Assembly (NCBI GenBank): GCA_021846965.1
Contig: JAJZWA010000011.1
Coordinates: 244-64,243 of the forward strand
DNA: 64,000 bases
Reading direction: 5' to 3'
DNA from: Pseudomonadota bacterium
GTDB taxonomy: Bacteria > Pseudomonadota > Gammaproteobacteria > Burkholderiales > Burkholderiaceae_C
The notes beneath the pieces are model-generated. The model saw nothing but the letters and a program-made list of their open reading frames with translations. It was not told the DNA's origin and ran no database searches. Shown here piece after piece: positions 7,197 to 54,436 of the stretch; the first letter of the stretch is position 1, and each line of letters begins with the position of its first letter. The translations under genes and the position numbers were made by a program.

Positions 7197-7199
7197 CGC

Positions 7200-30847: not shown

Positions 30848-30896
30848 ACCCGGTCGATCGCGGCGGGGGCCACAACCCTCGCTGCCCGCACGGGCT

Positions 30897-31499
30897 TCAG
30901 CGCAGGCTGCGCGGGTTGCCGCGCGGGGGCTTGGGATAGGCGGCGCCTCCGCCGGTGCGGAACAGCACGTCGGCGAGGTCGTTGGTGATGCCCCACCAGT
31001 GGGAGGCGTTGTAGTAATGGTGGTGCATGTGCGCGCGTCGCATGCGCGCGCCGTAGCGCGTGCGCGGCCGGTACGCCGAGTCGTGGTGCGAGAAATGCAT
31101 CCACTCGTAGAACACGAAATACCCCACGCTGCCCGCCATGGGAACCAGCGCGACCCGCGGGCCGAACAGCAGCGCGTAGGCGCCGTAGGTCACGGCTGCC
31201 AGGGGCACCAGGGCCCAGGCCGGCCAGAACAGGCGCGCCACCTCCCGCGGCTCGGCGTGGTGGGCGTGGTGCAGGTCGACCTGCAGCCTGCGGCGCAGGC
31301 CGTCGCGCGCCGGCAGCGGCGCATGCAGCACGAATCGATGCAGGCCGAACTCGACGAAGGGCGCCATCGCCACCGGGAGCAGCAGCAGCGGCCAGTCCCG
31401 CTCCAGCGCGCCCAGGCGCCACGCGGCAACCAGCAGCGTGACGAAGCCGAGCATCATCGCCACCACCGTGGGATGGGTCCAGAGATCGCGCCTGCGCAT
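30897..31499 (-). CDS. Fatty acid hydroxylase / sterol desaturase family membrane di-metal enzyme
   Basis: Four His boxes (HRFVLH, HHAHH, HFSHH, HMHHH) with hydrophobic segments between them. It starts 12 bp after the tpsB stop. Confidence 0.88.
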   Translation of the reverse strand: MRRRDLWTHPTVVAMMLGFVTLLVAAWRLGALERDWPLLLLPVAMAPFVEFGLHRFVLHAPLPARDGLRRRLQVDLHHAHHAEPREVARLFWPAWALVPLAAVTYGAYALLFGPRVALVPMAGSVGYFVFYEWMHFSHHDSAYRPRTRYGARMRRAHMHHHYYNASHWWGITNDLADVLFRTGGGAAYPKPPRGNPRSLR

Positions 31500-31511
31500 G
31501 AGCCGCGGAGT

Positions 31512-33191
31512 CTACAGCAGGCGCGCCGTCAGGCTGAAATAGGCCTCCGAGCCCGATTGGCCATAGACCGTGGTCTCCAGCGGGACCCCCAGGGTGAAGG
31601 CCGCGCTCACGCCCGGCCACAGGGGCCAGTTGCATCCCACGCCCACCGAGCGCAGGTCCTGGTGTCGCGGGTAGTGGTTGAACACGCCGCCCTGGTCCAG
31701 GAACACGAAACCGTCCAGCGTGGGGCCCGGCGCCCCGGTGGCGCTGGGCAGCTCGAAGCCATGGTGCAATTCGAACTGGGCGTAATAGCCGCTGGGCCCG
31801 GCCACCGCGTTGGCCGGATAACCCCGCACCGTGGTGGGCCCGCCGACCTGGAACAGCTGCCCGCCGGGGATGGTCTGCTGCGAGGACACCTGCCAGGCGG
31901 CCGAGGCCACGCCGAACAACCCCTTGGGCAGCACGCGCCGAGCGTACAGGGTCCCGCCCAGCAACTCGAAATCGCTGTGCTGCCCGCTGACCTCGCTGGC
32001 CGATTGCACGAAACTGCCGGTGAGGGTGGCGCCCGCGCTCAAGCCAGGCGCCGTGTAGCCGGTCTTCAGGCCCAGGGACTCGGTGGTTGCGCTGTCGGAA
32101 CTCACCAGGGTGTCGAGCTCGAAGGACTTGGCGTTGGCCCAGCTCAGCGAGCCGGTGCCCAGGAGGATCCAGTTCAGGCCCACGTAGACCGGCTGCGCCA
32201 GGTTGGCCGACACGCTGTTGGACCAGCCCGAGACCTGCAGCTGCTGGTAGATGCCGGAGACATCGTGGATCTTCCCCGAGCTCAGGCTGATGCCGGCGCG
32301 CCCGCCCGAGGCGTTGATGGGCAGGTTGTAGGCCAGGCTGCCCATCTCATTGCCGCGGGACTTGAGCGCGTACAGCGTGAGCCGGTCATCGATGCCCGCC
32401 GGCGCATAGAGCTGGTACAGGACTCCTGCCTCGTCGCGGCCCACGGCCGACACTCCCTGGTTGTCCAGGAACACCTGCAGGAGATTGCGCGGCGGCTCGG
32501 TGACGGCCAGCTCGATGTCGGTGAGCCCGAAACGCGCGCCCGGCTTGAGCAGCGCCTGGATGCGCGCCAGGCCCGTGTCGTTGAAACGCGCCAGATCACC
32601 GGACACCCGCGGCAGGTTCACCACCTGGCCCGGCTGCAGCGCGACGAAGGAACGCACGAAGGACGGCGCCAGGTGCCGGGTACCGCTCACCGCCAGTTGC
32701 CCCAGGCGCCCCTGCAGCACCGCGATGCGCACGACTCCGCCGGAAATGGTCTGGGGCGGCAGATAGGCCGACACCGTGACCTCGTGCTTGCGCGCCAGCA
32801 CCTGGTTCAGCTCGGCCACCATGCGGCGCAGCGTGGCGATGCTGGCCGGGCGCCCGACATGGGGCGAGGTGACCGCGTCGATCTCCCGGCGCGTCAGGAA
32901 GGGGGTGGGGTCGACGCGCACCCCCCGCAGCAGGAAGCGGGGCCCCTGCGCGCCGGACGCTGCGGGCGCCGGCGGCGTGGCCTGCAGGGGCGATGCCGGC
33001 TTGGGCAGCGCGTTGTTCTGCTCCAGCTGGTTCAGGTTGCCCTGCCCCTGCTTGTTGAGCAGGCCGGGATTGAGCGTGGGCGGCAGCGGCGTGGCGGCGA
33101 GCGCGGACTTGGCGGCGCAGCCCAGGAGCAGCGCGCCCAGGCAGCGCAGGGCCAGGACGCGCACGGAGGAGAACTCGCGCATGGGCATCAC
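31512..33191 (-). CDS. TpsB transporter (ShlB/FhaC/HecB family)
   Basis: Signal peptide; POTRA-like segments (AYLPPQTISGGVVRIAVLQGRLG); barrel start FLDNQG; conserved VRGY and FLDQG (FxDxG) motifs. The start overlaps the tpsA stop (GTGATG). Confidence 0.93.
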   Translation of the reverse strand: MMPMREFSSVRVLALRCLGALLLGCAAKSALAATPLPPTLNPGLLNKQGQGNLNQLEQNNALPKPASPLQATPPAPAASGAQGPRFLLRGVRVDPTPFLTRREIDAVTSPHVGRPASIATLRRMVAELNQVLARKHEVTVSAYLPPQTISGGVVRIAVLQGRLGQLAVSGTRHLAPSFVRSFVALQPGQVVNLPRVSGDLARFNDTGLARIQALLKPGARFGLTDIELAVTEPPRNLLQVFLDNQGVSAVGRDEAGVLYQLYAPAGIDDRLTLYALKSRGNEMGSLAYNLPINASGGRAGISLSSGKIHDVSGIYQQLQVSGWSNSVSANLAQPVYVGLNWILLGTGSLSWANAKSFELDTLVSSDSATTESLGLKTGYTAPGLSAGATLTGSFVQSASEVSGQHSDFELLGGTLYARRVLPKGLFGVASAAWQVSSQQTIPGGQLFQVGGPTTVRGYPANAVAGPSGYYAQFELHHGFELPSATGAPGPTLDGFVFLDQGGVFNHYPRHQDLRSVGVGCNWPLWPGVSAAFTLGVPLETTVYGQSGSEAYFSLTARLL

Positions 33192-36100
33192 AGCCTGGAC
33201 ACGATCAGCGCGCCGTGTTTGCGCCGAAGGCCCTCGTCCCCGCCCGGCTGCTGCAGGTCCACCGCCGGCTGCGAAGGCCAGGCGAAGCCGAAATCGCTGC
33301 CGAACAGCGGCGGCGCCTGGAACACCGAGAACCAGCTGCCCAGGCTCTGCCCGGTGTCACCGGCCAGGACCTCGGCGTCGCCGTTGCGCAGCCCGCGCAC
33401 GAAGTCGTCCACGAAATTCTGGTTCTGGATCATGCCCTTGCCCAACAGGTAGCCCAGTTGCGAGGTGGTGGTGTTGTTGACAAAGAAGGCCGTGGTCAGC
33501 GTGAGATCGCCCAGCTGGCTGAGCTGGAAGGACAGGCCCGGGTTGTAGATGCTCACGATCTGCGGCCCCGCCGGTCGCGGGGACTGGCTGTTGATGTCGA
33601 GCAACTGGTCAGGCAGGCTCAGCACCAGGTTCTGCAGGATGTAGCCGTCCAGAATGCGGAAGTCCGGAGAGTTCGACTGAATGGTGGCCTGGCTTTCGCG
33701 CAGGGAACCCAAGACCACCGGCAGGGTAGTGTCGATGGACACGCTGGCGTACAGACCCACCGACCCCTGCGGGCCGCCGAGATCGAGCTCGAAGGGCCCG
33801 GTGCTTCCGGCCGCCGGCACGATGCCGGCGATGTCGATGGTCGGCGCCGCGAAGGACGAACCCGAACCCACGGTGACCACCGGCAGGCTCAGCGAGGTCT
33901 GCGAACTCAGGTCCAGCGGGCCCCGGATGCTGAGTGCGCCGAACTCGATCGAACCCTGTGCCGTGGCGCTCAGCCCGGCATGGCCGTTCACGCTGGTCAC
34001 GCGGATGCCGCCACCGCTGGAACCCAGCACGATGTTGCCCGGATCCGTGGGCAGGCCGGTCGTCAGCAGGTCGCCCAGGGTCAGCGGCCCCGCCGCCTGC
34101 AGCGACTGCGAGCCGCCGCTGGACACCGTGCCCAGCGTGACGGCGCCGTCGCCCTGCACGCTGATGCTGCCCAGCGCCGCGCTGATGCCGGACAGGCTCA
34201 GGTCCTGCTGCGCCAGCAGGTTCACCGAGCCGTCCAGCGCGGCCACGCTTCCCGCGCCCACCGGGGCCGTGGTGATCACGTCGATGTCGCCCTGGGTGGA
34301 CGACAGGGTGAGACTTCCCGTGCCAATGATCAGGGGGTTGGGGGTCGGGCTGATGCTGTCGGCCGTGCCAGGGGCCTCGCCCGGCGCGTCGAAGGCCTCG
34401 GTGTCGGCCTCGGTCTCGTCGCCGATGCCCAGGCCCGCCTGGATGCTCACGCCGGCGCCGGGCGCGTCGGCGAGGATGTCCGTGCGCCCTGGCGCGGTGC
34501 CGGCGAGCACATGGCCGCCGGCGTCGATGAGCACCGCGCGGGCGTCGCCGCTGCCGCTGTTCAGCCCGGTGACCAGGGCGTCGCCGGTGGTGTCGATGGA
34601 GATGTCACCAACAAGGGCATCGATGCCGGACCCGTTGAGCATCTTCAGGCTATCCGCGCCCAGGGTGACCGAGCCCGCGGTGCTCAGCACCGAGCCGCCG
34701 GCGCCGAACACCTGTTCGCCGCCCGCCTGCAGCGCGACCTGTCCCAGCGCATCCACGGCGCCGGCGATGGTCGAGTCACCGGCGGACTGCAGGTTCACCA
34801 GGTCTCCGGAGTCGACGCCGCCGATCACGAAGGCATAACCGGCCGGCCCGTACAGCCACACCGATTGCCCGGGGGTGGGCGCGTCGGCGGTGATGGAGCC
34901 GCCGGCGGTCGTGACCCCGACGTTCAGCGCATCGCCCTGCGCGCCGATGGATCCGCCCGATGCGCTCAAGTCGACCTGGTCGGCGAGGATGTTCAGGTTG
35001 CTGCCCTGCCCTGCGTTCAGGATCGAACCGGGGGCGCTCAGCGAAACCGTCCCCGGGGAATAGAGGGTGCTGACCAGCGCATCCTGGGCGACCCCCATCC
35101 CGGCGGCCAGGTAGACCCCGTCCTGCGCCCGAGCGGTGATCGTGGCCCCCGAATCCAGTGCGAGGGCCAGACCACCCACGCCGCCATGGGCCAGGAGATT
35201 GCCGATGGTTCCGTCCGCCGCCTCCAGGATGATGTTCCCGGTGGCGATGTTCGATGCGCCCGCGTTGGCGATGCTGTCGAGTACCTTGATGCGGGCCTCG
35301 CCCGGCACCACGATGCTGCCCAGCGCCAGGCTACCGCGCGAGGCGACATAGGCGTTGCCGATGTCCAGCCCGCCGTTGGGCACGGCCTGGACGGACAGGT
35401 TCAGGCTGCCGCTGGCGCTGACGTTGAGCGGGCGCTTGGTCAGGATGGTCAGGTAGCTGCCCTGGGTGTAGGCCTGGCCGCTGGCCGCGGCGTCCAGAGC
35501 CGCCTGCTGCTGGGCCGACAGCGCGCTGTAGGGAGCATCCAGCGGCACGTTGGCGGTGCCTCCCGCATAGGCCACGGTCAGTTGCAGGTCGGAAGCCTCG
35601 GCCGACGCCAACTGCGCCTGCTGATCCACGCTCAGGGTGCTGGGCCGGGTGCCCGCGGCGATCACCGTCCCGTACTGGTTGTTGCTGCCGTTGCCGGTCT
35701 GGATGGTCTCGCCGACCCCCTGGCCGGCGTCCAGGCTCACCGTGCGGCCCGAGACGTTCGGCGCCTTCACCACATCGTTGGTGTTGGTCACCGTCTTGAG
35801 CAGCGCGGCCGACAGCGAGAACGACAGCTCGTCGTTGGTCCAGGTCGCACCCTGGGTCAGGCTTTGCAGCGTGGCGGCGGGCGCGTGGTACTGGTAGTTC
35901 GCGACATAGCTTGAGGTCAGGCCGCCGACCTCGCTGTTGAGGGTGTGGTATTGCTGGGTCTGCGCCTGCTCCAGGGCCGTGATGTCGACGCCCTTGTCCT
36001 CGGCGTCGAGCGCATCGCGCTGCTGTTGACTGAAGCTCACCTGGTAGTTCGGGTCGTAGCTCAGCCCGTGGTCGGGCTGGCTGAGCCGGATCGCCCAGTA

Positions 36101-39100
36101 CTGCTGGTATTCCTGAGTGACCGAACTTTGGTAGGCGGACTGGGTCTGCGCGATTTTCTGCGTGTTGGCCTGCCCAGCCGTCAGGCCCAGCGACTGCCAG
36201 TAGCTCAGCAGTTGCTGTTGCGTGCGCTGGTCGATGGTCTGCACCGGATTGTTGTCGAGGATCTGGCCCGGCGCCGACAGCGTCACGTCGCCCCCGAGGG
36301 AAACCACGGTATCGGCCAGCAGGTTGCCGCTCGGGTTGTCGGCCCACGCGCCGGAAAGGATGTCGATGTCGCCGGCGGCCTGTGCCTGCAATCCGTAGTA
36401 CAGGGTCGCGCCCTGCGCTGTGGGCGGGCCGAAGGGACGCAGGTTCTGGTCGGTGGTGAAGCCGGTGTCGACCGCCAGCGCGCCGCCGGCCACCCCGCCG
36501 AGGTCGCCGTGACCGGCATCGAGCCAGACGGCGTCGGCTCGCACCAGGGAGCCGGGGTTGGCGCCGAGAATGCCCTGGTCGGCGCTCAGGCTGACCGCGC
36601 TCTGGCCCGATGCGGCATTCGCCGAGACCTGATCCACCACGAGTTGGCCGATGCCGCTGATCGACACGTCGCCGCTGCCACCGTTCGCCCCCGCCACCGC
36701 GCTCAGGGCTCCGCCGGTGAGTTGCACCGATACCGGCGCCTGCACCGGCGCGCCGGCGGCACTGTCGGTGACCCCGCCGATCGAGCCCGCGGCCTGCAGG
36801 CCGATGTCGTGCGCCGTGATGGTCGCCCCGGTGGCGCCCGCGACGATCGAGGCGCCCGCGCCCGTGACGTTGATGCTCGTGCTGCCGGAAGCGTTGCCGA
36901 GGGCGCCGTCGAGTACCACGCTGCCAACCGACTGCACCTGGATGCTGCCAGTCGACGAACCCTGAAAGTCGATGCCGATGGGGTAGTCGGCCTTCAGCGA
37001 GGTCTTGGTGGTCTGGGTGTAGTGCTGGGTCAGCTGGTAGGTCGTGGTGTCGTTCTGGACCACGCACAAGGTGAGCCAGTTGCAGCTGCTGGAGCTGCCG
37101 GTGGCGACCTGGTTCCAGGAATCCAGGTAATAGGTGGTGGACTGCACGCTGCCCTTGCTCTCCAGCGTGGAGTTCGGCACGGTGGTGATCCCGGGGTCGC
37201 TGGTGACCACGTACTGCCCGGAGCTACCCAGGGGCGTCAGCCCGCCGCCGCCGGTCTGCGTGGAGCTCGTCGAGATGAAGCTTCCGTTGGGAAGCACCTC
37301 GCTCTGGTTGGCCGTCACCTGCACGTTGTCCACATTCGAGAACTGACCCAGGGACAGGCTGGAGGAGCCGAACAGGTTGGCCGAGGTGGTCGAGAAGTTG
37401 GTGACCTTGGTGTATTGGGTCTGGGTGGCGAACACGTACCTCGCGCCCTGGCTCAACGGGGCGTAGGTGGTGTCCCTGCCGTCGACCGACGTTCCCGGCG
37501 AGCTCACCGGATGGACCGGAAGTCCGTCGACCCCGAGGGTCGCGGTGGACACCGTGGATTGCACCTGATTCGCCGCCGGGTCGTAGGTGTACTGGGTCTG
37601 GCGCCAGTCGACCACGGAGGCGTTGTTGGGGTCGAGGCGCACGTCGGTGATCTGGATCATCCCCTCGGTGCCGCGCCCCCCTCCCGCCGTGTCGGCCCCG
37701 GTGGACAGGCTGGACAGCACGACCGGGGCGCTGGTCTGGTTCTGGATGTCGATGCTGCCGAATCCATCGAGCACCGATAGCTTGCCGGCGGTGGGCGAAC
37801 TGTCGATGATCTGACCGTAGAGCTGGATATAGCCTCCATGCACCTCGGTCGGATCGACGACGTAGCGCTGCTGCGTGGCGTCGTAGCTGGCCTGGATGGT
37901 GCTGCCCGGGCTCAGCAGCTTGTAGACGAAATTCGCTCCGCTTGTCGAATGGGCCTGGTAGTAGTCGTTGGCATACGCGGCCTTGAACTCGACCTGCCCG
38001 TTGGCCGTGTCGACCCACAGGTGGTGGCCCTGGCTGTCGGTGTTCACCAGCACCAGGCTTCCGGCGCCCGCCACCGGGTTGCTGGTGTATTGCGCGATGG
38101 TCGGGTTGGTCGAGGATTCGCCGATCGATGCCAGGTCGGAGGTCGTGAGCAGATCGCCCGATGCGATGCTCAGCGCGTTGTCGACCATGCCGCTCTGGAT
38201 CAGGCTGTTGATGTTGAGGTAGCGGGCGGCGATCGAGATATTGCCGTTGACGATCGTGCTCTGCAGCCCGGACTGGTTCGCGCAGGGGCCCGTGATCGCA
38301 TTGCCGGCGGCATCCGCGCAGGACGTGCCGGTGGTGGCCGGGTTCTGAGTCGCCGGATTGCCTCCCTGGTTGTCGATCGAATCCGTGTAGCTCGACGAGT
38401 AGTCGCCGTTGTACGCGGTGATCGACAGCGACTGCGCGTCGATGCTGCCGTCCTGGTAGATGTTTCCGTCGTAACTGACGATGGTCACCGGACCGTTGGC
38501 GTTGCTGATGGCCGCGCCCTGGTTCAAGGTGAGGTCAGGGGCGATCATCTGGTGCTTCAGGTAATAAAGCGAGCCCGAATAGTTCGAGTTGTAGTAGCCG
38601 CCATCGTTCGGGTTGTAGTTGCTGGTGATGCTGATCGCCGGCGCGGCGGAGTTGGCACGCGTGATCAGGTTCTGCGCCTCGAGATCCGATGCCGCGCCGC
38701 CGACGTTGATGGCCGTGACCTGATCAGGCGTGCTCACGTCGGTGCCGTTGAACACCACGTAGCCGGCGGCCACCGCCGGGATGGTCAGGCTGCCGATGGC
38801 CAGCGGGTTGGCGGTGTAGTTGTCGATCCGGATCAGGGCGTCGCCAGGGGCGGCGATGATCCCCTGGGCGGACGCGGTGTAGCTCGAGTTCACCGGCAGC
38901 AGCGCGTTCAACTCCGGTGTCAGCGCCGTGGTGCTGGTGGTCAGGACGTCGGCATTCAGGTTGACGTTGCCGATTCGCGCGTAGACCGGGGCGACCTGGA
39001 TTTCCAGTACCTTCACCGGGCTGGTGGCCGCGGCGACCAGGTCGCCGGCCACGGTGTTCGCCTGCGCGACGAGCTGGCTCGCGTACTGCGCCAGTGAGCC

Positions 39101-48100: not shown

Positions 48101-51100
48101 GTCCTCCCGCTCATTCACGCCGTTCTGGCTCAGGTCCACCGTGGCGGGCCCGGCGCTGCTCGAGCCCGGCACCGCCGGCGAGGCCACCCCCTGGTCGGTC
48201 TGCAGCGCCGTCAGGCTCAGCGAGCCGGCCTCGTACTGCCCGGCCGCCAGCATGCCCACGCTCGGCGCCGCCGACAGTGCCGAGCCGGCGCCCAAGGTCG
48301 CGTCGTTGACCTGGTGCGCCAGCGTGACCGCCACGGCCGCGCCGATGCCCACCGAAGTGCCGCCACCCGCCACCTGGCTGCCGTCGGCCTGCGTGCGCGC
48401 GTCCATATTGGACACCGTGCTCACGCTCAGGGCCCCGCCCGCCTTCACACCCACCGCCGCAGGGACGTAGGCCTGCACGCTCGAGTTCGCCACGTCCACT
48501 GCAATCGCCGCGGCCACCGCCACCGAGCCGTCGCTGGTCGAGCCCTGCCCGTTCTCGCTGCCCGAGGAGGAACCGTCCTGCGACTGCTGGGAGCTGCTGC
48601 CCACACCAGCATCGCCGGCCTTGGTCTCGGCACTGTCGGATTGCTTCTGGATTTTCGCGTCGACGCTGGAGTCCTCGCCCGAAGGCGCCGAACCGTCGCT
48701 GTTCGACCCATTGCCTCCGCTGGCGCTGGCCGTGGCGCTGGCCACGCTGAGCGACACCCCGGTGGCGCTGAAACCCACGTCCCCCGTGCTGTCCACGCTG
48801 GTCGAGGTCGTCGCCACCACCGAGTCGTTGATCACCGACACCGCCAGCGCCGCCCCCACCGCCGCCTTCGAGCCCGCCGCCGTCCCGCTGGCCTCCGTCG
48901 CCTCGGTGGCCGTCTGCTCCGCCGTCACCTGCACGGGGCCCGTGGCCTGCAGCCCGCCGCTCAGCGCCCCGATGCTCGCCTGCGTCTGATCGTTGACCAG
49001 CGACAGCGCCACCACCGGGGTCACCGACACCCCGCCGGCCGAACCCTGGTCCGCCTGCGTGCTCACCACATGCGAGGCATCGGCCGTCAGGCTCACCGCC
49101 CCGGCACCGCTCAGGGCCACGCCATCGGCCAGTTGCGCGTAGGAGCGCGTGGCCACGATGTTCAGCCCCACCGAGGCCCCCACCCCGACCTTGCCGCCCG
49201 AGGCGCCCGCGCCCTGCGGCAGCGCCGCCACGGTGCTCGACGTCAGATCGTCCGAGCTCAGCTGCACCCCGCCGCTGCCCCCGCTCAGGCTCAGCGTGCC
49301 CGAGGCGAGCTTCGCCACGGCCTCGCTGTCCACCAGGTCCAGAGCCAGCGAGCCGGCCACCCCCACCTTGGAGGCGCCGGCGCCCGAGGTCGCCGAGGCC
49401 GAGAACAGGTCCTCCCGCTCATTCACGCCGTTCTGGCTCAGGTCCACCGTGGCGGGCCCGGCGCTGCTCGAGCCCGGCACCGCCGGCGAGGCCACCCCCT
49501 GGTCGGTCTGCAGCGCCGTCAGGCTCAGCGAGCCGGCCTCGTACTGCCCGGCCGCCAGCATGCCCACGCTCGGCGCCGCCGACAGTGCCGAGCCGGCGCC
49601 CAAGGTCGCGTCGTTGACCTGGTGCGCCAGCGTGACCGCCACGGCCGCGCCGATGCCCACCGAAGTGCCGCCACCCGCCACCTGGCTGCCGTCGGCCTGC
49701 GTGCGCGCGTCCATATTGGACACCGTGCTCACGCTCAGGGCCCCGCCCGCCTTCACACCCACCGCCGCAGGGACGTAGGCCTGCACGCTCGAGTTCGCCA
49801 CGTCCACTGCAATCGCCGCGGCCACCGCCACCGAGCCGTCGCTGGTCGAGCCCTGCCCGTTCTCGCTGCCCGAGGAGGAACCGTCCTGCGACTGCTGGGA
49901 GCTGCTGCCCACACCAGCATCGCCGGCCTTGGTCTCGGCACTGTCGGATTGCTTCTGGATTTTCGCGTCGACGCTGGAGTCCTCGCCCGAAGGCGCCGAA
50001 CCGTCGCTGTTCGACCCATTGCCTCCGCTGGCGCTGGCCGTGGCGCTGGCCACGCTGAGCGACACCCCGGTGGCGCTGAAACCCACGTCCCCCGTGCTGT
50101 CCACGCTGGTCGAGGTCGTCGCCACCACCGAGTCGTTGATCACCGACACCGCCAGCGCCGCCCCCACCGCCGCCTTCGAGCCCGCCGCCGTCCCGCTGGC
50201 CTCCGTCGCCTCGGTGGCCGTCTGCTCCGCCGTCACCTGCACGGGGCCCGTGGCCTGCAGCCCGCCGCTCAGCGCCCCGATGCTCGCCTGCGTCTGATCG
50301 TTGACCAGCGACAGCGCCACCACCGGGGTCACCGACACCCCGCCGGCCGAACCCTGGTCCGCCTGCGTGCTCACCACATGCGAGGCATCGGCCGTCAGGC
50401 TCACCGCCCCGGCACCGCTCAGGGCCACGCCATCGGCCAGTTGCGCGTAGGAGCGCGTGGCCACGATGTTCAGCCCCACCGAGGCCCCCACCCCGACCTT
50501 GCCGCCCGAGACGCCCGCGCCCTGCGGCAGCGCCGCCACGGTGCTCGACGTCAGATCGTCCGAGCTCAGGTGCACCCCGCCGCTGCCCCCGCTCAGGCTC
50601 AGCGTGCCCGAGACGACCCTGGCCTCGGCCTCGCTGTCCAGCAGATCGGTGGCCAGCGAGCCGGCCACCCCCACGCTGGACGCGCCCGCGCCCGACACGG
50701 CCTGGGCGCTGAAGGCGTTGCCGGCGATGCCGCCGCTCATGTTCGCGGACAGGCTCAGGCTGCCGGCCTGGATGTCCTGGGCCACAGTGGCGTCGTCCGA
50801 CACATGGGCCAGGTTCAGCGCCACCGCGGCGCCGATGCCCAGCTTGGAGGTGGAGTCCCCGGCCGGCGAGCCATCGGCCAGGACCGAGGCGCCGTTGGCC
50901 GCGCTGCCGTTCAGGGAGACCTGCCCGGCCGCGGTGGCCTGGCTGGTGGAGGACATGTCCACCTGGGTCGCCGAATGCAGGTCGCTGATGGCCAGCGCCG
51001 CGGCAGCGCCCACGCTGCCGTCCGAGGTGGACAGGTAGGGCGTGTAGCTAGGGTCGGACAGGTATTGCGCGGCCTGGCCTCCCGGGTCCGGACTGGACGA

Positions 51101-53266
51101 GGCGCCGCCTTGCGAGGCCGTGGCCGCGGTGCTCATGGACAGCACGGTGGTGCCCGAAAGCATGAGGTCCCCGGCCGAGTGCACGCTGGCCGATCCGTCG
51201 ATCTCCGCGGTGGTCTGAACCTTCACGATGTTGACCGCCACGCTGGCGCCGGCCGATGCGCCCGAGGCATCTGCGGTGGCCGAGGAGCTCACGGTGTTGG
51301 TGGCGCCCAGGGACAGCAGGCTGCCGGCGCCGGTGGTGCTCACCGTCGAGCTGCCGCCGACTTCCACGCTGGACACGCTGGTGACCTGGTTCACGGCGGC
51401 CGCTGCGTCGGCCGGCAGCGACAACGTGAGCGGAAGCGCCGCGGTGCTGGCCGCTGCGGCGTTTGCGTCGGCCGACAGGGTCATCGTGCCGGAGGAACTG
51501 AGGTTGGAGTCCCCGAGGATGCTCACCGAGGCGAGCACATCCGCCGACGCGGAGGCGCCGATGGCCGTGAGCTGCTGGCCGCCACTGGCCACCGCCATCG
51601 CGCTGAGGGTTCCAAAGGCCGTGATGTCGGCGTTCTGGATGCTCACCACCGCGTGGTCGTAGGAGTTCTGCGCCAGCTGCGAAGTGGCCTGCAGGGAAAT
51701 GTTCCCTCCCTCCAGCACCGCGGCCTGCCCGCTGGTATCACCGATGGCGATTTGCGCCGCATAGCTCGGGGTGGCGTTCGCGCTGAGCTGGATGGAGCCG
51801 GCCCCGGGGCCGCTTCCGCTCAGCAGTTGCGCGCCGCCCCCGATGGTGATGGACGGGGCGCTCAGGGAAATGCTCCCGCCGCCCGTCGTGCCGCTGGCCT
51901 CGGTATCGATGACGCCGTCGGCGGCCACCGTGATGGAGTGCGAAGCCAGCAAGGTCAGGCTGCCGCCGTTGGTGGTGTAGGCGCTGTCGTTGCCGGCGTT
52001 GATCACCAGATCGATGGGGTCGATGAGCAGCGTGCCGGCACGACCGTCGGTGGCCCCGAGATTGACCTGCAGGCTGCCGAGGGTGGCCGTGTCCTGCGCC
52101 GACAACTCGATGCTGCCGGCGTTGCCGCTGGAGCCGGCCTGCGCCCGCAGCGTGGCCCCGGAGGCCACGCGCAGATCGTGCGCGGCCTTCACGGCGATGG
52201 AGCCTCCATCGGAGGCGGTGCCGGAGCCGGCCGCGCTCAGCACGCTGCTCGCCGCCACGTCGATGTCCCGCCCGGCGTGCAGGGTGATGGCGCCGGCGTT
52301 CACCCCGGGCGCGCCATCGGCGACGATCTGGCCGCCCATCCGCAGATCGCGTCCGGCGGACACGCTGACGCCGCCCGCGGAGGTCCTGGACGCCGCCGCG
52401 CTGAGCGTGCCGTCGATGGTGACATCCTGCGCCGCGACGATGCGGATGCTGCCGCCGCTGGCGACGATGGCCCCGCCTTGCGCCAGCCCCTGGGTGTTGA
52501 CGGTGGCCTGGAACAGCGTGTCGTGCTGCGCCGCCGACGGCGCCTGCGCGCTGGCCGCCGCGACCAGCACGTCGTGCGCGTAGATCTGCACGCCGCCGCG
52601 GGCGCGCACGCTTCCCTGGATCAACACCGATCCGTCGGCGGACAAGGGCACGTCGCCCGCCAGCAGACGCTGCGACAAGGCCGTATCGATATGGCCGGAA
52701 GCGTCGATCAGCTGGTCCAGCACGCCCGAGGTGGGCGTGACCACGGTGAAGCCGCCCACGTCGACCACGCCGGATCGGCCGACGATCAGCCCGTTCGGGT
52801 CGGCAAACACGACATTGCCGCCCAGCGTACCGTTCTTGTACGAGCGCAGGGTTCCCTCGATGTCCACGGGGGCGTCGCGCACGACGTTGAGCAGCGTGCC
52901 CGCGCTCGCCGGAACCAGCAGGTTGACTTGCTTGCCCGCACCGACCACGAAGCGGCTGAAACTGTTGTATCCCACGCCCGCGCGCACGGTCGCGGTGGAG
53001 ACATTGGTGATCTGCCCCGGCAGGTTCACCACGCTGGTCGCGGTGCGCCCGTCGGGCGTGATCAGATTCCCCGCGGGGGCGACGGCGGCACCGGCCCAGG
53101 AGGCCTGCGCGAATCCCATGGCCAGCGCCAGCACCAGGGTGGCCGGTGCGAGCACCTGCCCGGCGGGCAAGGCGCGGCCCCGCGCCGCCCTGCGCCCGCT
53201 GAAGGAGGACCGGCGGCGCGAGCCCGCCCCCGGCGCCGCGCGCTGGACCTTGGCTGTGCCCCCCAT
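33188..53266 (-). CDS. Giant TpsA exoprotein, leukotoxin-LktA-like filamentous adhesin (6,692 aa)
   Basis: Uninterrupted 20-kb ORF; signal peptide; TPS secretion domain (YNSFSRF...VNL...LLNVV...GNVVFADPNG, NPxG-like); long Gly/Ala/Ser/Val beta-helix-type repeats; adjacent tpsB. Confidence 0.93.
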   Translation of the reverse strand: MGGTAKVQRAAPGAGSRRRSSFSGRRAARGRALPAGQVLAPATLVLALAMGFAQASWAGAAVAPAGNLITPDGRTATSVVNLPGQITNVSTATVRAGVGYNSFSRFVVGAGKQVNLLVPASAGTLLNVVRDAPVDIEGTLRSYKNGTLGGNVVFADPNGLIVGRSGVVDVGGFTVVTPTSGVLDQLIDASGHIDTALSQRLLAGDVPLSADGSVLIQGSVRARGGVQIYAHDVLVAAASAQAPSAAQHDTLFQATVNTQGLAQGGAIVASGGSIRIVAAQDVTIDGTLSAAASRTSAGGVSVSAGRDLRMGGQIVADGAPGVNAGAITLHAGRDIDVAASSVLSAAGSGTASDGGSIAVKAAHDLRVASGATLRAQAGSSGNAGSIELSAQDTATLGSLQVNLGATDGRAGTLLIDPIDLVINAGNDSAYTTNGGSLTLLASHSITVAADGVIDTEASGTTGGGSISLSAPSITIGGGAQLLSGSGPGAGSIQLSANATPSYAAQIAIGDTSGQAAVLEGGNISLQATSQLAQNSYDHAVVSIQNADITAFGTLSAMAVASGGQQLTAIGASASADVLASVSILGDSNLSSSGTMTLSADANAAAASTAALPLTLSLPADAAAAVNQVTSVSSVEVGGSSTVSTTGAGSLLSLGATNTVSSSATADASGASAGASVAVNIVKVQTTAEIDGSASVHSAGDLMLSGTTVLSMSTAATASQGGASSSPDPGGQAAQYLSDPSYTPYLSTSDGSVGAAAALAISDLHSATQVDMSSTSQATAAGQVSLNGSAANGASVLADGSPAGDSTSKLGIGAAVALNLAHVSDDATVAQDIQAGSLSLSANMSGGIAGNAFSAQAVSGAGASSVGVAGSLATDLLDSEAEARVVSGTLSLSGGSGGVHLSSDDLTSSTVAALPQGAGVSGGKVGVGASVGLNIVATRSYAQLADGVALSGAGAVSLTADASHVVSTQADQGSAGGVSVTPVVALSLVNDQTQASIGALSGGLQATGPVQVTAEQTATEATEASGTAAGSKAAVGAALAVSVINDSVVATTSTSVDSTGDVGFSATGVSLSVASATASASGGNGSNSDGSAPSGEDSSVDAKIQKQSDSAETKAGDAGVGSSSQQSQDGSSSGSENGQGSTSDGSVAVAAAIAVDVANSSVQAYVPAAVGVKAGGALSVSTVSNMDARTQADGSQVAGGGTSVGIGAAVAVTLAHQVNDATLGAGSALSAAPSVGMLAAGQYEAGSLSLTALQTDQGVASPAVPGSSSAGPATVDLSQNGVNEREDLFSASATSGAGASKVGVAGSLALDLVDSEAVAKLASGTLSLSGGSGGVQLSSDDLTSSTVAALPQGAGASGGKVGVGASVGLNIVATRSYAQLADGVALSGAGAVSLTADASHVVSTQADQGSAGGVSVTPVVALSLVNDQTQASIGALSGGLQATGPVQVTAEQTATEATEASGTAAGSKAAVGAALAVSVINDSVVATTSTSVDSTGDVGFSATGVSLSVASATASASGGNGSNSDGSAPSGEDSSVDAKIQKQSDSAETKAGDAGVGSSSQQSQDGSSSGSENGQGSTSDGSVAVAAAIAVDVANSSVQAYVPAAVGVKAGGALSVSTVSNMDARTQADGSQVAGGGTSVGIGAAVAVTLAHQVNDATLGAGSALSAAPSVGMLAAGQYEAGSLSLTALQTDQGVASPAVPGSSSAGPATVDLSQNGVNEREDLFSASATSGAGASKVGLAGSLAVNVIQSDSSASVQGSGTLLRIDGGAVDIGAANLMQADASATPSDTGASGGKLGVGASVALNTITETSQASIADQVSLAGTLGSLDVGASSTTDTSSTAQAGAAGGVAVDAVVAMSILSETTTATVGSGDAFTTAGGVDISASSEGTNTATATASVKGSGSSVAIGGSVALITGPGILGATSGGSAITSQTTASLNRDATIGAGLQILASSSRSYDAESTASASGNQFSSAMQSGNDSTSGGGSVASGDTLNTSQAQSAMSQGASDSGTTQSKASGSSGSQGKVSVAAAVGAAIVGDQVQASIGGGAQGARRTISVGGAVLVSAGNQGDVYTEGDGSTDTSSKVGVGVGVALSLVDNASSASIGSHTNLYTPGAVSVQAISSENQDPGFVDARASAVAMSGASAGKVAVAGSIAVAASLSSTSASIGDEVQIGQPGTNGMGAAGDLSVQADNTSSWAANAWSGSSSNQGVGIGASIAAVISTDSYTAAVGQNDDLHGASLSVTATNHKVDNPLSGVTKLAGDASSAASATSSQLGTSLSQDASTLQTTLTSLAGQGLRLALLGQTNFLAEAGAGAASGNSAAIAGAFAVEVVDNTVSAGIGASTTVHSTGSVSVKAADDTVAKALLGGAAASAGSAGVGVAGAFLYDDSSIQSQLGTGVDIASSAALDVGAAASQDVQLFGFSAGAADEAGVAGVIGLITSQREVGATVGAGSSIQSSGAVDVSASNDFSALNIGGSLGAGGSAGVGATLIATTITDGATALLDSSQADPTQVLGASSLTVGASTSENVINVAVAGSAGGDVAISGVATPLTEVITTAANIGSNALITTSGELEVDAADQSQVVNVGGGVAAAGSVGVGLTAAVTTLDNSITAGIGSGAQITAASLDVQADASTVAYNIAVAGGIGGDVGVSGVLTPVTQTDTVSASIGQDVGITTTDAATGFVDVNASNNTHILNVGGAIGVGGAAGVGGSAAASVLDDTTQATMLDGTSVSAAGAVQVGASADENVSTAVITGAAGGSAGVAVALASSDIVDTTQAYIGYGATVDAASVDVAASDLSTISDIAGAAGGGGAAGVGAGVDVNVLKKNTHAWIGIEAVGAQGTAALVHASSGDVTVQAASSETLSSVVAGAAVGGAAGVAGAVQTYVLLGDTEAGIGAGDTVTAYGNVAVLASDDDGLGAVVGGAAGGGAAGVGASIGVSVVQQTTLAGIGAGAQVSALGNGNSQSLTSGFGDQFNGQQAAQPTTSDGALNEGNNLLGSNQGSLVTRTVAPITRDVHGVLVNAVATASLDAAAVSGAVGGAVGAAISGAVPVVISDTEASIGSGAVVDGGANSGASAAQSVAVAAASNLYVRGITGAGGGGGAVGVGAGLLTNVIDNTTKAFIDGGASVAAQSNVDVSANAGEDFSGLTASAGLGGVAGIAGGATVLVVDDTTLATIDGTVDAGGSVVVSADDQTNAALTAGSAGIGGAAGVGAGIGVAVLIKDTEAHVGSGAVINAGGQGSDSAFLLYTAGDSAATSAGQGLLVSADSAQSLDSLALAGAGGAYAGVAGAVSVQAVSTTTIASIDGGARINTQTPGAGSGQNVDVAARDNTALYAVDASAGVGIAGVGGSVNVAVLTSNTQASIGDNAVVDAAGAVSVAAYSNKAVDASVFGVGGGVFGLGASINVLAISNGQSANGSSGSDTQTIGALTTSSGGQSVGDNANSQMHDNTIGNDYLSQSSNSDVSSASASAQSTQDSTSASAVLSGQGQTGTSASIGNATVHAGGSITVASDDKVTVSNLSGALGAGGVGIGAGVGVAIDNTRNSASVSGAAGSGASLSGSQLEVSADTQHTLGVQSYAGGVGLLAGADAVVAYTGDSSQTQASVSDASVSSPGEVDITATSNRALNSTGSGAAAGGMAAGAAVSIAQLSGSEQASADAATFGTPTAQVGSVDIQANSTDSANASSLAVSAGIGIAVEGSVATATLSPQVQAFFDNGSIDSAGAVNIGAEADNLVAANASGGALALLGAAGASVATATQGAQVSADVNTATIDAASLSIDAGLGQASPPSEGVSATASGASGALFVGINASAASAINQSSAIASAEYANFDVQGLVDLEGQSQTAQSAVVTGYVAAGLLALGANEATATSTTTTHALLSDMSGLSAGSLTVNAAGNDGNVAQATAGSGAAFAGSAAQAMTVSQADTQAGIENLPPANAPTQPLQTFAVAVPSGQVRITATHTASFGGGVDSTNAAIVGASGATLDNQVHSVVAADLGPLVHVVADGFTLDARNLVGSLPAPLAGGWNVQSGSGGLLNAPAAGSDTTLGLVSTANVGDGASVHLLAQADPSSPSLLFIEAYNDPVVQQSVKMDSGGAIALAEVSDNISVNDSAVVSIGNQSQLLVDAGDIQIGAWGNASLYGLAYASTYGLAGAPTGQAHLDYTGNDLVSIGTNAQVQASHGVYPAGGTAPTDGTVRIAAGDSPTGQQSSLSLDSEVQLYNNTAIPIPTPPDAQSNIVSNALVAIAADPANQAGATDPAQGAPYGVSAAGDITISADKGAMSTTATGTGTNIYLEALSKVASAVSNLFGGGSVSFKITGGSTSQTGGSAILDQGLVDTGIQRQKTLTIRYANSAQDAGGSCDPSQSACLAAGTSNGISYTTTTIAPGGDLVARYYHLQQLLAEYSQDPIAKGAYQNEINFIEKELIGLGMGSIDTNGDFVLSSTLQASQQAAQQNLGQDQQILSFTGANLGVALTSLSGNDAQYATAIYNLSLNQQSPYSLVPLANAALGIISGMNNYAAYTAAANGNTPAAAGYSELQDLGVQEQSVRTAVGDITNEAASNTQAQTDITGQVSSITTMAVQVNGASATSARTLSGNFATLVANAQGQISGDLQAIDTNLANEDKQAATIYSAAQSLNSDLSALAQGSITAASSSNNAQNALHNQDEATYAGLVGGSGALYTLNNVTLGGLQNLASNMHADYLGEHATYGVLSASSSTAGSLAQYASQLVAQANTVAGDLVAAATSPVKVLEIQVAPVYARIGNVNLNADVLTTSTTALTPELNALLPVNSSYTASAQGIIAAPGDALIRIDNYTANPLAIGSLTIPAVAAGYVVFNGTDVSTPDQVTAINVGGAASDLEAQNLITRANSAAPAISITSNYNPNDGGYYNSNYSGSLYYLKHQMIAPDLTLNQGAAISNANGPVTIVSYDGNIYQDGSIDAQSLSITAYNGDYSSSYTDSIDNQGGNPATQNPATTGTSCADAAGNAITGPCANQSGLQSTIVNGNISIAARYLNINSLIQSGMVDNALSIASGDLLTTSDLASIGESSTNPTIAQYTSNPVAGAGSLVLVNTDSQGHHLWVDTANGQVEFKAAYANDYYQAHSTSGANFVYKLLSPGSTIQASYDATQQRYVVDPTEVHGGYIQLYGQIIDSSPTAGKLSVLDGFGSIDIQNQTSAPVVLSSLSTGADTAGGGRGTEGMIQITDVRLDPNNASVVDWRQTQYTYDPAANQVQSTVSTATLGVDGLPVHPVSSPGTSVDGRDTTYAPLSQGARYVFATQTQYTKVTNFSTTSANLFGSSSLSLGQFSNVDNVQVTANQSEVLPNGSFISTSSTQTGGGGLTPLGSSGQYVVTSDPGITTVPNSTLESKGSVQSTTYYLDSWNQVATGSSSSCNWLTLCVVQNDTTTYQLTQHYTQTTKTSLKADYPIGIDFQGSSTGSIQVQSVGSVVLDGALGNASGSTSINVTGAGASIVAGATGATITAHDIGLQAAGSIGGVTDSAAGAPVQAPVSVQLTGGALSAVAGANGGSGDVSISGIGQLVVDQVSANAASGQSAVSLSADQGILGANPGSLVRADAVWLDAGHGDLGGVAGGALAVDTGFTTDQNLRPFGPPTAQGATLYYGLQAQAAGDIDILSGAWADNPSGNLLADTVVSLGGDVTLSAPGQILDNNPVQTIDQRTQQQLLSYWQSLGLTAGQANTQKIAQTQSAYQSSVTQEYQQYWAIRLSQPDHGLSYDPNYQVSFSQQQRDALDAEDKGVDITALEQAQTQQYHTLNSEVGGLTSSYVANYQYHAPAATLQSLTQGATWTNDELSFSLSAALLKTVTNTNDVVKAPNVSGRTVSLDAGQGVGETIQTGNGSNNQYGTVIAAGTRPSTLSVDQQAQLASAEASDLQLTVAYAGGTANVPLDAPYSALSAQQQAALDAAASGQAYTQGSYLTILTKRPLNVSASGSLNLSVQAVPNGGLDIGNAYVASRGSLALGSIVVPGEARIKVLDSIANAGASNIATGNIILEAADGTIGNLLAHGGVGGLALALDSGATITARAQDGVYLAAGMGVAQDALVSTLYSPGTVSLSAPGSILNAGQGSNLNILADQVDLSASGGSIGAQGDALNVGVTTAGGSITADAPTPGQSVWLYGPAGYAFVIGGVDSGDLVNLQSAGDSTIAGAVDALGQVALQAGGEQVFGAGGSVLSTAGSVTLGADSLKMLNGSGIDALVGDISIDTTGDALVTGLNSGSGDARAVLIDAGGHVLAGTAPGRTDILADAPGAGVSIQAGLGIGDETEADTEAFDAPGEAPGTADSISPTPNPLIIGTGSLTLSSTQGDIDVITTAPVGAGSVAALDGSVNLLAQQDLSLSGISAALGSISVQGDGAVTLGTVSSGGSQSLQAAGPLTLGDLLTTGLPTDPGNIVLGSSGGGIRVTSVNGHAGLSATAQGSIEFGALSIRGPLDLSSQTSLSLPVVTVGSGSSFAAPTIDIAGIVPAAGSTGPFELDLGGPQGSVGLYASVSIDTTLPVVLGSLRESQATIQSNSPDFRILDGYILQNLVLSLPDQLLDINSQSPRPAGPQIVSIYNPGLSFQLSQLGDLTLTTAFFVNNTTTSQLGYLLGKGMIQNQNFVDDFVRGLRNGDAEVLAGDTGQSLGSWFSVFQAPPLFGSDFGFAWPSQPAVDLQQPGGDEGLRRKHGALIVSRL
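48057..49202. repeat. Copy of a 1,308-bp-period in-frame tandem duplication in tpsA (partner 49365-50510)
   Basis: The offset is exactly 1,308 bp (436 codons). Shadow ORFs 48445..48711/49753..50019 and 48621..48989/49929..50297 translate identically. First mismatch at 49203/50511; near-identity continues to about 49304/50612. Confidence 0.95.
49365..50510. repeat. Second copy of the 1,308-bp-period duplication in tpsA
   Basis: Matches 48057-49202 at every position I spot-checked. Confidence 0.95.
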
Positions 53267-53347
53267 CGCCCTTCCCCCCGGCGCCCTCGGCGCCCTGTCG
53301 TTGTTCTCGTCCCCCCGCGGCGGCGGGCGGATCGCATACGGCCGGCT

Positions 53348-54115
53348 TCAGCCGGCCATGCCCTCGTCCTCGGTCTGCCGGGCCTCGCCCTGGAGCGGCT
53401 CGCCCTGCACCTGCCTGCGCAGAACCTCGACCGCGCGCAGGCTGAACAAATGCGCGTAGATGGGCACCAGGAAGCCGCCGTCGCGCAGGCGCAGCCATTG
53501 CTCGGCCGACAGCGCGTCGAGCCGGGCCTCGTCGATGGTCATGAAACCGTGGATCACGGCGCTGCCTGCCTGCCCGACCGTGGTCTCGATGGTGACGTTG
53601 CGCAGCAATTGAAGCTCGTGCACCAGGGACAGGAAGGCCTGGGTCCTGGCGGCGGCCTGGTAGTACTTGTCCACCAGGTCCACGCAGCCTGCCAGCAGCG
53701 GGGTCTCCCGGCCCTCTTCGTCGAACAGCCGTGCCCCTTGCGAATCGCCCAGCAGGCCGCTGCGCTCGTCGATGCATGTGACGGGGGATGAGCCGCTGAT
53801 CTCGCCGCGCATGAACGGATAGCGCCGCACGAAGGCCGGCAGGTAGGCACCGGTCCATCGGCCCTGCTCGTCGACGAACAGGTTGCGCTGGGGACGCACG
53901 CCCACCAGAAACACCGTGGTCGGGAAGGGCTGCGCCGGTGCGAACACGATGGGCAGGTGCGCCAGCGCGGCTGCGAACTCGTCGACCACCGCGGGGATCA
54001 CATGGGTGCCCCTGCAGAAGCCAAAGCGGGTCGGCGAATCGTCCAGGCGCAGCTCGCGATGGCGTTCGCGGTTGAGCGCCACGACCGATTGATAGAACAG
54101 CGGGTTTGTCTCCAT
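53348..54115 (-). CDS. sapC: SapC family protein
   Basis: PLFYQSVVALNRERH...IPAVVDEF...LPIVF...NLFVDEQGRWTGAYLPAFVRRYPF...CIDE...RLFDEEGRETPLL, the SapC pattern. ATG 54115 has a GGGGAGG RBS. Confidence 0.88.
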   Translation of the reverse strand: METNPLFYQSVVALNRERHRELRLDDSPTRFGFCRGTHVIPAVVDEFAAALAHLPIVFAPAQPFPTTVFLVGVRPQRNLFVDEQGRWTGAYLPAFVRRYPFMRGEISGSSPVTCIDERSGLLGDSQGARLFDEEGRETPLLAGCVDLVDKYYQAAARTQAFLSLVHELQLLRNVTIETTVGQAGSAVIHGFMTIDEARLDALSAEQWLRLRDGGFLVPIYAHLFSLRAVEVLRRQVQGEPLQGEARQTEDEGMAG

Positions 54116-54155
54116 CCCCTCCCCCAAGGATTGTTCATTTTTGTGGGCGGCATGC

Positions 54156-54180
54156 CTGGAAAAGCTCATGGGCTTTCCAG
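54156..54180 (-). promoter_or_regulatory. Hairpin at the predicted 5' end of the sapC leader
   Basis: CTGGAAAAGC-TCATGG-GCTTTCCAG, 9 bp with a single bulge. Confidence 0.4.
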
Positions 54181-54189
54181 CTTCCTTCC

Positions 54190-54217
54190 ACATTAGGCGA
54201 GCCTGACGGCGTGTCAA
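54190..54217 (-). promoter_or_regulatory. Candidate sigma70 promoter for sapC-tpsA-tpsB
   Basis: Minus strand TTGACA (54217-54212), 16-nt spacer, TAATGT (54195-54190). The -35 overlaps an inverted repeat TCAAT-N12-ATTGA (54214-54235). Confidence 0.55.
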
Positions 54218-54401
54218 TGCGAACTTAACCATTGAGAAGCGACAGAGCCCACCCCCTTGTTCGCGGGGGAAAACGGGCATGCGAAATCGCCCGGACTGTG
54301 CCGGGCAGCGCGCTGCTTGGCGCAGGAACAAGCCAGGAGGGGCGACAGGAAATTGCGTCTCCATGTAAAGACGCGCCTGCGCGTTGTGACAAAGCGACGC
54401 C

Positions 54402-54436
54402 AAAAAAACGACGATCCCGCCCCTTCCACCGGGGCG
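54402..54436 (-). terminator. Possible intrinsic terminator after the P-type ATPase gene
   Basis: Minus strand CGCCCC-GGTGGAA-GGGGCG hairpin followed 9 nt later by T7. The displaced U-tract makes it imperfect. Confidence 0.35.

Follow-up and report, generated by a model that had tools for sequence, protein, structure and literature searches.

A SapC-family gene linked to LktA-type two-partner secretion loci, and a candidate cytoplasmic role for SapC in the biogenesis of giant exoproteins

Introduction

Why does a gene of the SapC family head a locus whose other products are those of two-partner secretion (TPS)? The founding member of this family (PF07277) is encoded in sapCDEF, the S-layer type I secretion locus of Campylobacter fetus, and to our knowledge no function has been assigned to SapC since 1998. 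The question is raised by a 64,000-nucleotide stretch of a Burkholderiales genome (assembly GCA_021846965.1, contig JAJZWA010000011.1; the whole stretch is referred to as the window, and positions are those of the window), which has a G+C content of ~70% and 100% of whose sampled words are contained in two mine-drainage metagenome runs. Four co-oriented minus-strand open reading frames (ORFs) follow one another there in the order sapC, tpsA (coding for a giant exoprotein of the LktA family), tpsB (its predicted outer-membrane transporter) and a PF04116 hydroxylase gene. The gaps between them, given exactly by an initial annotation of this DNA, are 81 bp between sapC and tpsA, a stop/start overlap of 4 bp between tpsA and tpsB, and 12 bp between tpsB and the hydroxylase gene.

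We propose that sapC, tpsA and tpsB form a three-gene cassette, with a P-type ATPase gene on one side and a backbone hydroxylase gene on the other, in which SapC is probably a cytoplasmic factor directed at the passenger protein. The recurrence of SapC genes beside genes for giant exoproteins, in TPS loci and in several other settings, makes a real functional link between the two quite likely.

Results

SapC genes beside LktA-type TPS loci

The genomic surroundings of the two families were surveyed from both sides. An alignment of 30 SapC homologs gave at least 596 genomic matches, of which the best 80 loci were fetched; on the TpsA side, 60 loci were retrieved through the FxxPxG-type TPS domain with an alignment of five TPS sequences (fetched loci are labeled L with a number). 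Of the best 80 SapC loci, 10 encode, as the direct neighbor of SapC, either a close TpsB (E <1e-60) or a TPS domain of LktA type. In another three the TpsB matches are weaker, and one of these three (L019) has a classical PF05860 TPS protein. Seen from TpsA, SapC is found immediately upstream or divergent in 20 of the 60 loci, with ORF boundaries that are often 1-100 bp apart; this count is a lower bound, since 10 kb were visible per side and the tpsA genes are longer than that.

The carriers include the closest relatives, the metagenome-assembled genomes (MAGs) ZJ4.bin29 and bin40, which are 87-89% identical, and a Burkholderiales GJ-E10-like MAG in which SapC is followed by a 6237-aa protein. 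Further carriers are Rhizobium, Caulobacteraceae, Tardiphaga, Massilia, Duganella and two Phycisphaerae (Planctomycetota), and the SapC-adjacent LktA-type loci are spread over Alpha-, Beta- and Gammaproteobacteria and Planctomycetota. Three gene orders are observed: SapC-TpsA-TpsB, TpsA-TpsB-SapC (L002, L012, L014, L015) and a divergent arrangement (L011, L093, L096). In a neighbor-joining tree of SapC, the TPS-linked sequences form two separate clades. In open-access text, no paper was found that links SapC to two-partner secretion or TpsB, or to giant exoproteins in general.

A 22.9-kb indel of exactly three genes

The limits of the module were read from a blastn comparison of the window with a syntenic relative (L147). 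Positions 1-5906 of L147 correspond to 60338-54435 of the window and positions 5999-6615 to 31501-30885, with 92 bp between the two matches in L147. The gene order in this relative is HgmA, FAA hydrolase, IclR, P-type ATPase, the 92 bp, hydroxylase, DUF2784, acetyl-CoA hydrolase, PALP and a SoxA/TsdA cytochrome; the flanks are common to L147 and the window, and the L147 hydroxylase is 87% identical. As these flanks are joined there without the module, the interval 31502..54434 (minus strand) is a 22.9-kb indel that holds exactly sapC, tpsA and tpsB. No tRNA, integrase or flanking direct repeats were found as marks of a mobile element at the borders of this island.

The same comparisons separate the hydroxylase gene from the module. 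This gene of 200 codons (30897..31499, minus strand) codes for a member of the fatty-acid hydroxylase / sterol desaturase family (PF04116, 49 bits for a cut-off of 31), which the initial annotation had counted as a member of the secretion system. In L149-L151, too, TPS genes are missing, and the hydroxylase gene is a neighbor of the acetyl-CoA hydrolase gene that is also seen in L147. Conversely, the closest module-bearing relative (L143, syntenic, with a TpsB 96% identical) has no hydroxylase gene: its tpsB stop is followed by 30 bp and then by a match to the window from 30907 onward, and the 605 bp containing the hydroxylase gene are missing. No PF04116 gene was found near TPS genes in L143-L146 and L152, nor in any of the 140 fetched loci. 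The hydroxylase gene thus exists without TPS genes at the same site (L147) and the module exists without the hydroxylase gene (L143), which places it outside the module. Judging from this synteny, it belongs to the chromosomal backbone and was in place before the module inserted, and the assignment of a lipid hydroxylase to the system has to be abandoned.

The hydroxylase gene of the window lacks the GGAG Shine-Dalgarno sequence found in L147, and the DUF2784 gene that follows the L147 hydroxylase gene is also absent (window 30885-31501 compared with L147 5999-7003). Its expression may now depend on read-through from tpsB.

SapC beside giant exoproteins of other secretion routes

The association of SapC is not limited to TPS. 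Within 1.5 kb of SapC, ~24 of the 80 loci have an ORF of 1200 aa or more, which in most cases extends past the end of the locus at >3200 aa (25 loci were flagged for a giant neighbor, and L072 was discounted as an SMC protein). Giants with an N-terminal LEPR-XLL domain (NF012209) accompany SapC in eight loci (L017, L031, L036, L058, L062, L068, L069, L079), and some of them bear LktA-type repeats; no functional literature on LEPR-XLL was found in open-access text. In six of these loci (L031, L036, L058, L068, L069, L079), the LEPR-XLL giant ORF begins 4-190 bp after SapC. Giants combining DUF4347 and RTX repeats are found by SapC in L017 and L065, RTX repeats only in L056, and in L007 the giant beside SapC has 12 or more MBG_2 domains. 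In Rahnella rivi (L077, 3-9854), a classical autotransporter of at least 3284 aa, with autochaperone and beta-domain, ends 42 bp before the SapC gene, and the association therefore extends to type Va (T5a) secretion.

The locus of Aquabacter cavernae (L004, 109-16737) encodes a PKD giant, SapC, a GAF-HlyD adaptor, a daptide-type HExxH metalloprotease/PqqD/HlyD fusion and a SecA paralog. Parts of this gene set recur in seven other loci (L003, L013, L040, L054, L069, L074, L075), and clusters of this type have the appearance of an as yet undescribed system for exporting or maturing a giant protein. Near SapC one also repeatedly meets TolC-type, ABC and radical-SAM genes. SapC therefore flanks giants of different secretion routes, a pattern that fits the suggestion of the initial annotation that SapC is a general accessory for very large surface proteins.

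The SapC protein

The sapC gene (53348..54115, minus strand) codes for a protein of 255 aa that is predicted to be cytoplasmic. It matches PF07277 with E 2.3e-60 and 204 bits (gathering score 28.9), over profile positions 1-218 of 220. The longest ORF begins at a TTG at 54403; homologs align from the ATG at 54115, which is preceded by GGGGAGGGG. Their matches begin at residues 1-7, with no N-terminal extension, and SapC therefore has no signal peptide, as had been supposed.

The family is large, with 6652 representatives at 50% identity, 2808 of them with E 1e-30 or better. Essentially all members are stand-alone proteins of ~240-290 aa, and no domain fusion was found: the top 150 representatives all stand alone, and five longer ones have PF07277 only. 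An alignment of 97 distinct SapC sequences, taken from all genomic contexts, has 11 invariant residues (E46, F58, P93, A94, R97, R98, Y99, P100, D116, F131, S225), and five more are conserved at 94-98% (Y8, H19, W87, Y91, H222). These ~16 near-invariant residues are mostly polar, despite an overall identity of only ~30-35%. We read the invariance of the polar residues as compatible with an active or ligand site, and a conservation pattern was also the ground on which SapC had been predicted to be an uncharacterized enzyme (Iyer et al. 2010, PMC2938197). The structure check of SapC alone that the initial annotation had suggested gave a confident AlphaFold2 (AF2) model (pLDDT 91.3), for which no match was found in PDB.

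TpsB and the secretion class of the locus

The transporter gene tpsB (31512..33191, minus strand) codes for a protein of the Omp85 family with a signal peptide, a POTRA_2 domain (PF08479, E 3e-11) and a ShlB barrel (PF03865, E 8e-18). Its profile matches the CdiB structure 6wim (E 2e-40) and the FhaC structure 4qky (E 2e-30) over nearly the full length. Pairs of tpsA and tpsB are also found in L144-L146 and L152. By its domain content, the locus is a type Vb (two-partner, T5b) secretion system of the LktA/FxxPxG class, with export itself predicted. A search of all window ORFs with HlyD, outer-membrane efflux protein (OEP) and ABC queries (phmmer) returned no HlyD or OEP homolog and, for ABC, a single 265-aa ATPase-like ORF at 6405-7199. 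In keeping with the initial annotation, which had seen no type I secretion system (T1SS) here, no TolC homolog was found in the window either, and the locus is therefore not a T1SS of the sapCDEF type.

The giant exoprotein TpsA

The tpsA gene (33188..53266, minus strand) encodes a filamentous exoprotein of 6692 aa, assigned to the LktA family by NF012204 and NF012206. It begins with a predicted Sec signal peptide (aa 1-58, 53093..53266), read from the translation, which has a long basic n-region, a hydrophobic core and the end ASWA|GA. A TPS (secretion) domain of FxxPxG type follows at aa 87-237 (52556..53008); it is matched by NF012204 (adhes_FxxPxG, leukotoxin LktA family filamentous adhesin) with E 1.2e-43, and FADPNG at aa 154-159 represents the FxxPxG motif. 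The TIGR01901 match is borderline (28-31 bits for a cut-off of 29.1), and Pfam, PF05860 included, has no match on TpsA. A single-sequence AF2 model of the TPS domain, for which a right-handed beta-helix would be expected, is poor (pLDDT 56, and <50 for residues 1-156); its top match by TM-score is the HMW1 secretion domain 2odl, with E=3 and TM 0.34. A profile search of the TPS domain against PDB sequences returned nothing.

Next comes a repeat region of ~42 LktA_tand_53-like units (aa 670-3907, 41546..51259). NF012206 (LktA_tand_53) matches TpsA with 113 bits for a cut-off of 50, in 11 stretches, and an iterated hidden Markov model built for these repeats gives 43 matches, 42 of them inside aa 670-3907, with a unit of ~50 aa. 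Within this region, 48032..50645 is a tandem duplication of 1308 bp with ~99% identity, corresponding to two tandem copies of 436 aa. This is either a recent in-frame duplication or a collapse/expansion of the assembly. The remaining C-terminal region is non-repetitive (~2785 aa, 33191..41545), is richer in Q/N/Y and has three close Cys pairs; it is conserved in alphaproteobacterial homologs, with homologous regions in relatives from Devosia (41%), Fulvimarina (29-35%) and Bradyrhizobium. Searches of TpsA for a VENN motif and for toxin domains of Pfam or NCBIfam gave none, and as tpsB comes directly after this region, the locus does not have the toxin/immunity layout of contact-dependent inhibition (CDI).

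Mature TpsA would be a protein of ~637 kDa with a pI of ~4.05 and 62 Lys and 80 Arg in 6634 residues. Its composition (Lys+Arg 2.1%, Asp+Glu 7.4%) may reflect exposure to acid mine drainage. As an acidic, K/R-poor fiber of a mine-drainage organism, TpsA could plausibly have a role in adhesion, biofilm or mineral attachment, although this is speculation.

Compared with the relative L144, TpsA is 84-86% identical over aa 4000-6200 and 56% over the last 493 aa (window 33191-34670), and TpsB is 61% identical. The C-terminus of TpsA and TpsB appear to be diverging, or recombining, together.

Transcription of the module

The single sigma70-like promoter that the initial annotation had placed before the four genes finds less support than their arrangement. 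A weak candidate read from the sequence (TTGACA-16 nt-TAATGT, 54190..54217, minus strand) matches 9 of 12 consensus positions but no more than 3 of the 6 in the -10 hexamer; a strict promoter scan reports no promoter at this place. A scan for minus-strand terminator-like hairpins found none between the four genes. Upstream of the candidate sapC promoter, a GC-rich palindrome with 18-nt arms (83% complementary) lies at 54296-54325; it could be an operator.

Short contigs of a mine-drainage metatranscriptome, at 90-97% identity, cover sapC at 53325-53671 and 53811-54141. Contigs of the same metatranscriptome also fall on the 3' part of tpsA, on tpsB, on the tpsB/hydroxylase junction (31495-31674) and on the hydroxylase gene. 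Related alleles of these genes are thus expressed, or the RNA library at least contains their sequences.

Discussion

Based on the synteny, the genomic surveys and the sequence features presented here, we favor a scheme in which sapC, tpsA and tpsB act together and SapC is directed at the passenger. TpsA would be made in the cytoplasm and taken across the inner membrane by Sec; its N-terminal FxxPxG TPS domain would then be recognized by the TpsB POTRA domains, and the TpsB barrel would thread TpsA to the outside of the cell, where the protein is predicted to fold as a very long, acidic, beta-helical fiber, the ~42 repeats being followed by the 2.8-kaa C-terminal region. These steps are drawn from family membership. 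SapC, encoded first in the operon, would be a dedicated cytoplasmic partner that acts on the nascent or pre-export giant polypeptide, and the downstream hydroxylase gene would be mere read-through neighborhood. That SapC acts on the polypeptide rather than on the outer-membrane machinery is suggested by the fact that its homologs accompany giants with different export routes (T5b, T5a, T1SS, LEPR-XLL). Since these routes differ, the common step would precede outer-membrane transport, and since T1SS bypasses the periplasm, this step is most simply placed in the cytoplasm. The S-layer T1SS of C. fetus, as an analogous case, fits this pattern of SapC with giant proteins.

Several observations weigh against this scheme. 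No SapC gene was found within 10 kb upstream in 40 of the 60 LktA-type TPS loci; either SapC is not universally required or it is encoded elsewhere. In at least 12 of the SapC-less loci, an OmpR-type response regulator is encoded directly upstream of tpsA (L118, L122, L124-L126, L129-L131, L133, L135, L138 and L139, that is, the Pseudomonas clade together with L118, L133 and L138), and a hybrid histidine kinase is encoded nearby in nine or 10 of these and in L103. Many SapC homologs of the 80-locus set have no giant neighbor. The AF2 model of SapC is without a PDB match, and neither a catalytic nor a chaperone fold was recognized in it. The RNA contigs are short, come from related strains and possibly include DNA, and they do not establish an operon structure. 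Finally, SapC has been described in TonB-receptor / tryptophan-halogenase / JmjC clusters, for which a small-molecule role was proposed (PMC2938197). SapC of the window has the family and the invariant polar residues in common with these clusters; none of their other genes is present in the window, and they suggest a small-molecule or siderophore pathway rather than a giant protein.

Judged by gene content, the regulator-linked loci are a second LktA-type TPS subtype, and the SapC-linked loci are a subset and not the whole class. The SapC-dependent TPS subtype proposed by the initial annotation is thus upheld in part: SapC is conserved beside LktA-type tpsA genes across phyla (20/60 loci from the TpsA side, 10-13/80 from the SapC side), but its association concerns a subset only, as at least 12 other loci have the OmpR-type regulator.

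Four alternatives concern the extent of the system, the nature of TpsA and the reality of the SapC link, or place SapC at the level of gene expression. As the hydroxylase ATG lies 12 bp beyond the tpsB stop with no terminator in between, and as one metatranscriptome contig crosses the junction at 31495-31674, it is understandable that SapC and a membrane lipid hydroxylase might both be seen as TPS accessories (the latter modifying, for example, the lipid around TpsB, or lipidating TpsA). Such a four-gene system is very improbable, given that L147 and L149-L151 have the hydroxylase gene without the TPS module, that L143 has the module without the hydroxylase gene, and that none is found near the TPS genes of L144-L146, L152 and the 140 fetched loci. 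TpsA itself belongs to a family named after the leukotoxin of Fusobacterium necrophorum, and its last 490 aa are 56% identical to those of a close relative, against 84-86% over the preceding 2200 aa. A secreted cytotoxin or a contact-dependent inhibition toxin (LktA- or CdiA-like) in place of an adhesin or fiber is nevertheless unlikely, since neither a VENN motif nor a Pfam/NCBIfam toxin domain is found in TpsA, the overlap of tpsB with the tpsA stop leaves no room for the ORF of an immunity protein, and distant relatives keep a homologous C-terminal region instead of having a replacement for it. The adjacency of SapC could also be a matter of historical hitch-hiking on a mobile cassette, with no functional coupling to TPS: the module is an indel, so that its genes travel together, and an adjacent SapC is missing in 40 of 60 LktA-type loci. 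This has a small chance of being right, because the adjacency is kept at 35-65% protein identity across phyla, and three gene orders, two SapC clades and unrelated classes of giants are not the pattern expected from it. Extreme gene length is the only property common to all SapC partners, and in most loci SapC is encoded just 5' of the giant ORF, so that SapC might help to complete the transcription or translation of very long ORFs (anti-polarity, by a logic like that of RfaH). This role is improbable: no nucleic-acid-binding domain or fold was recognized in SapC, the orders TpsA-TpsB-SapC and giant-then-SapC exist too, and SapC is also found without giant genes, both in the 80-locus set and in published clusters (PMC2938197).

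The remaining alternative stays close to the scheme that we favor, with SapC as a passive, SecB-like holdase (preventing folding or aggregation) or targeting factor that hands giants over to SecA or to the ABC transporter of a T1SS. The cytoplasm is the sole compartment common to the giants of several export routes that SapC accompanies, SapC is clustered with a SecA paralog in eight loci, and sapC is the first gene of the operon. A purely passive role seems somewhat unlikely to us, as the strict invariance of the charged and polar residues E46, R97, R98, D116 and S225 would be expected of an active or ligand site more than of a holdase surface, and no similarity to known chaperone folds was found. 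With ~16 residues near-invariant at an overall identity of ~30-35%, we lean slightly, and tentatively, towards a passenger-directed SapC that has an enzymatic or ligand-dependent activity on the giant polypeptide, in preference to a passive holdase.

How does this locus compare with known secretion systems? The lktBAC locus of F. necrophorum, from which the LktA family takes its name, has the same FxxPxG-type TPS domain, LktA_tand_53 repeats and ShlB/FhaC-type TpsB. In contrast, the order here is sapC-tpsA-tpsB, TpsA is about two times longer (6692 aa), and leukotoxic activity is not implied; LktC is presumably a small protein unrelated to SapC. With Bordetella FhaB/FhaC and classical TPS systems, the locus shares full-length homology of its TpsB with FhaC and CdiB; its exoprotein is likewise giant, carries a Sec signal, has a conserved C-terminal region and is predicted to form a beta-helix. 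It differs from them in having FADPNG instead of NPNG, no PF05860 match and an extra gene for a cytoplasmic SapC. A third cytoplasmic gene product that acts on TpsA before export has precedents in the HMW1C/EtpC glycosyltransferases and in the CdiC acyltransferase, but SapC resembles neither glycosyltransferases nor TAAT acyltransferases in sequence or fold. In the C. fetus sapCDEF locus, SapC, to which no role is assigned there either, is likewise located 5' of the genes that secrete a large surface protein; the partner here is a T5b system, with no T1SS components in the window.

The LktA-type TPS and SapC families are both already catalogued. What would be new is their connection, and with it a three-component TPS subtype having an accessory whose modeled fold has no match in PDB. 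More broadly, it is possible, if still tentative, that SapC founds a structurally new class of cytoplasmic enzymes or ligand-dependent chaperones for giant repetitive exoproteins, whatever their export route (T5b of LktA- and FHA-type, T5a, T1SS with RTX and S-layer proteins, LEPR-XLL); the LktA-type loci would then be a three-component 'TpsABS' subtype. The SapC arrangement is found in culturable genera (Rhizobium, Massilia, Methylobacterium, Aquabacter, Rahnella), with Rhizobium terrae NAU-18, Rhizobium sp. RU36D, Massilia sp. TWP1-3-3, Rahnella rivi and Aquabacter cavernae among the carriers. Giant adhesins and fibers are central to biofilm formation and surface colonization, and the ways in which cells make repetitive polypeptides of 0.3-1 MDa, maintain them in a state fit for export and perhaps modify them are poorly understood. 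SapC is a concrete candidate for a missing factor in the biogenesis of such giant exoproteins.

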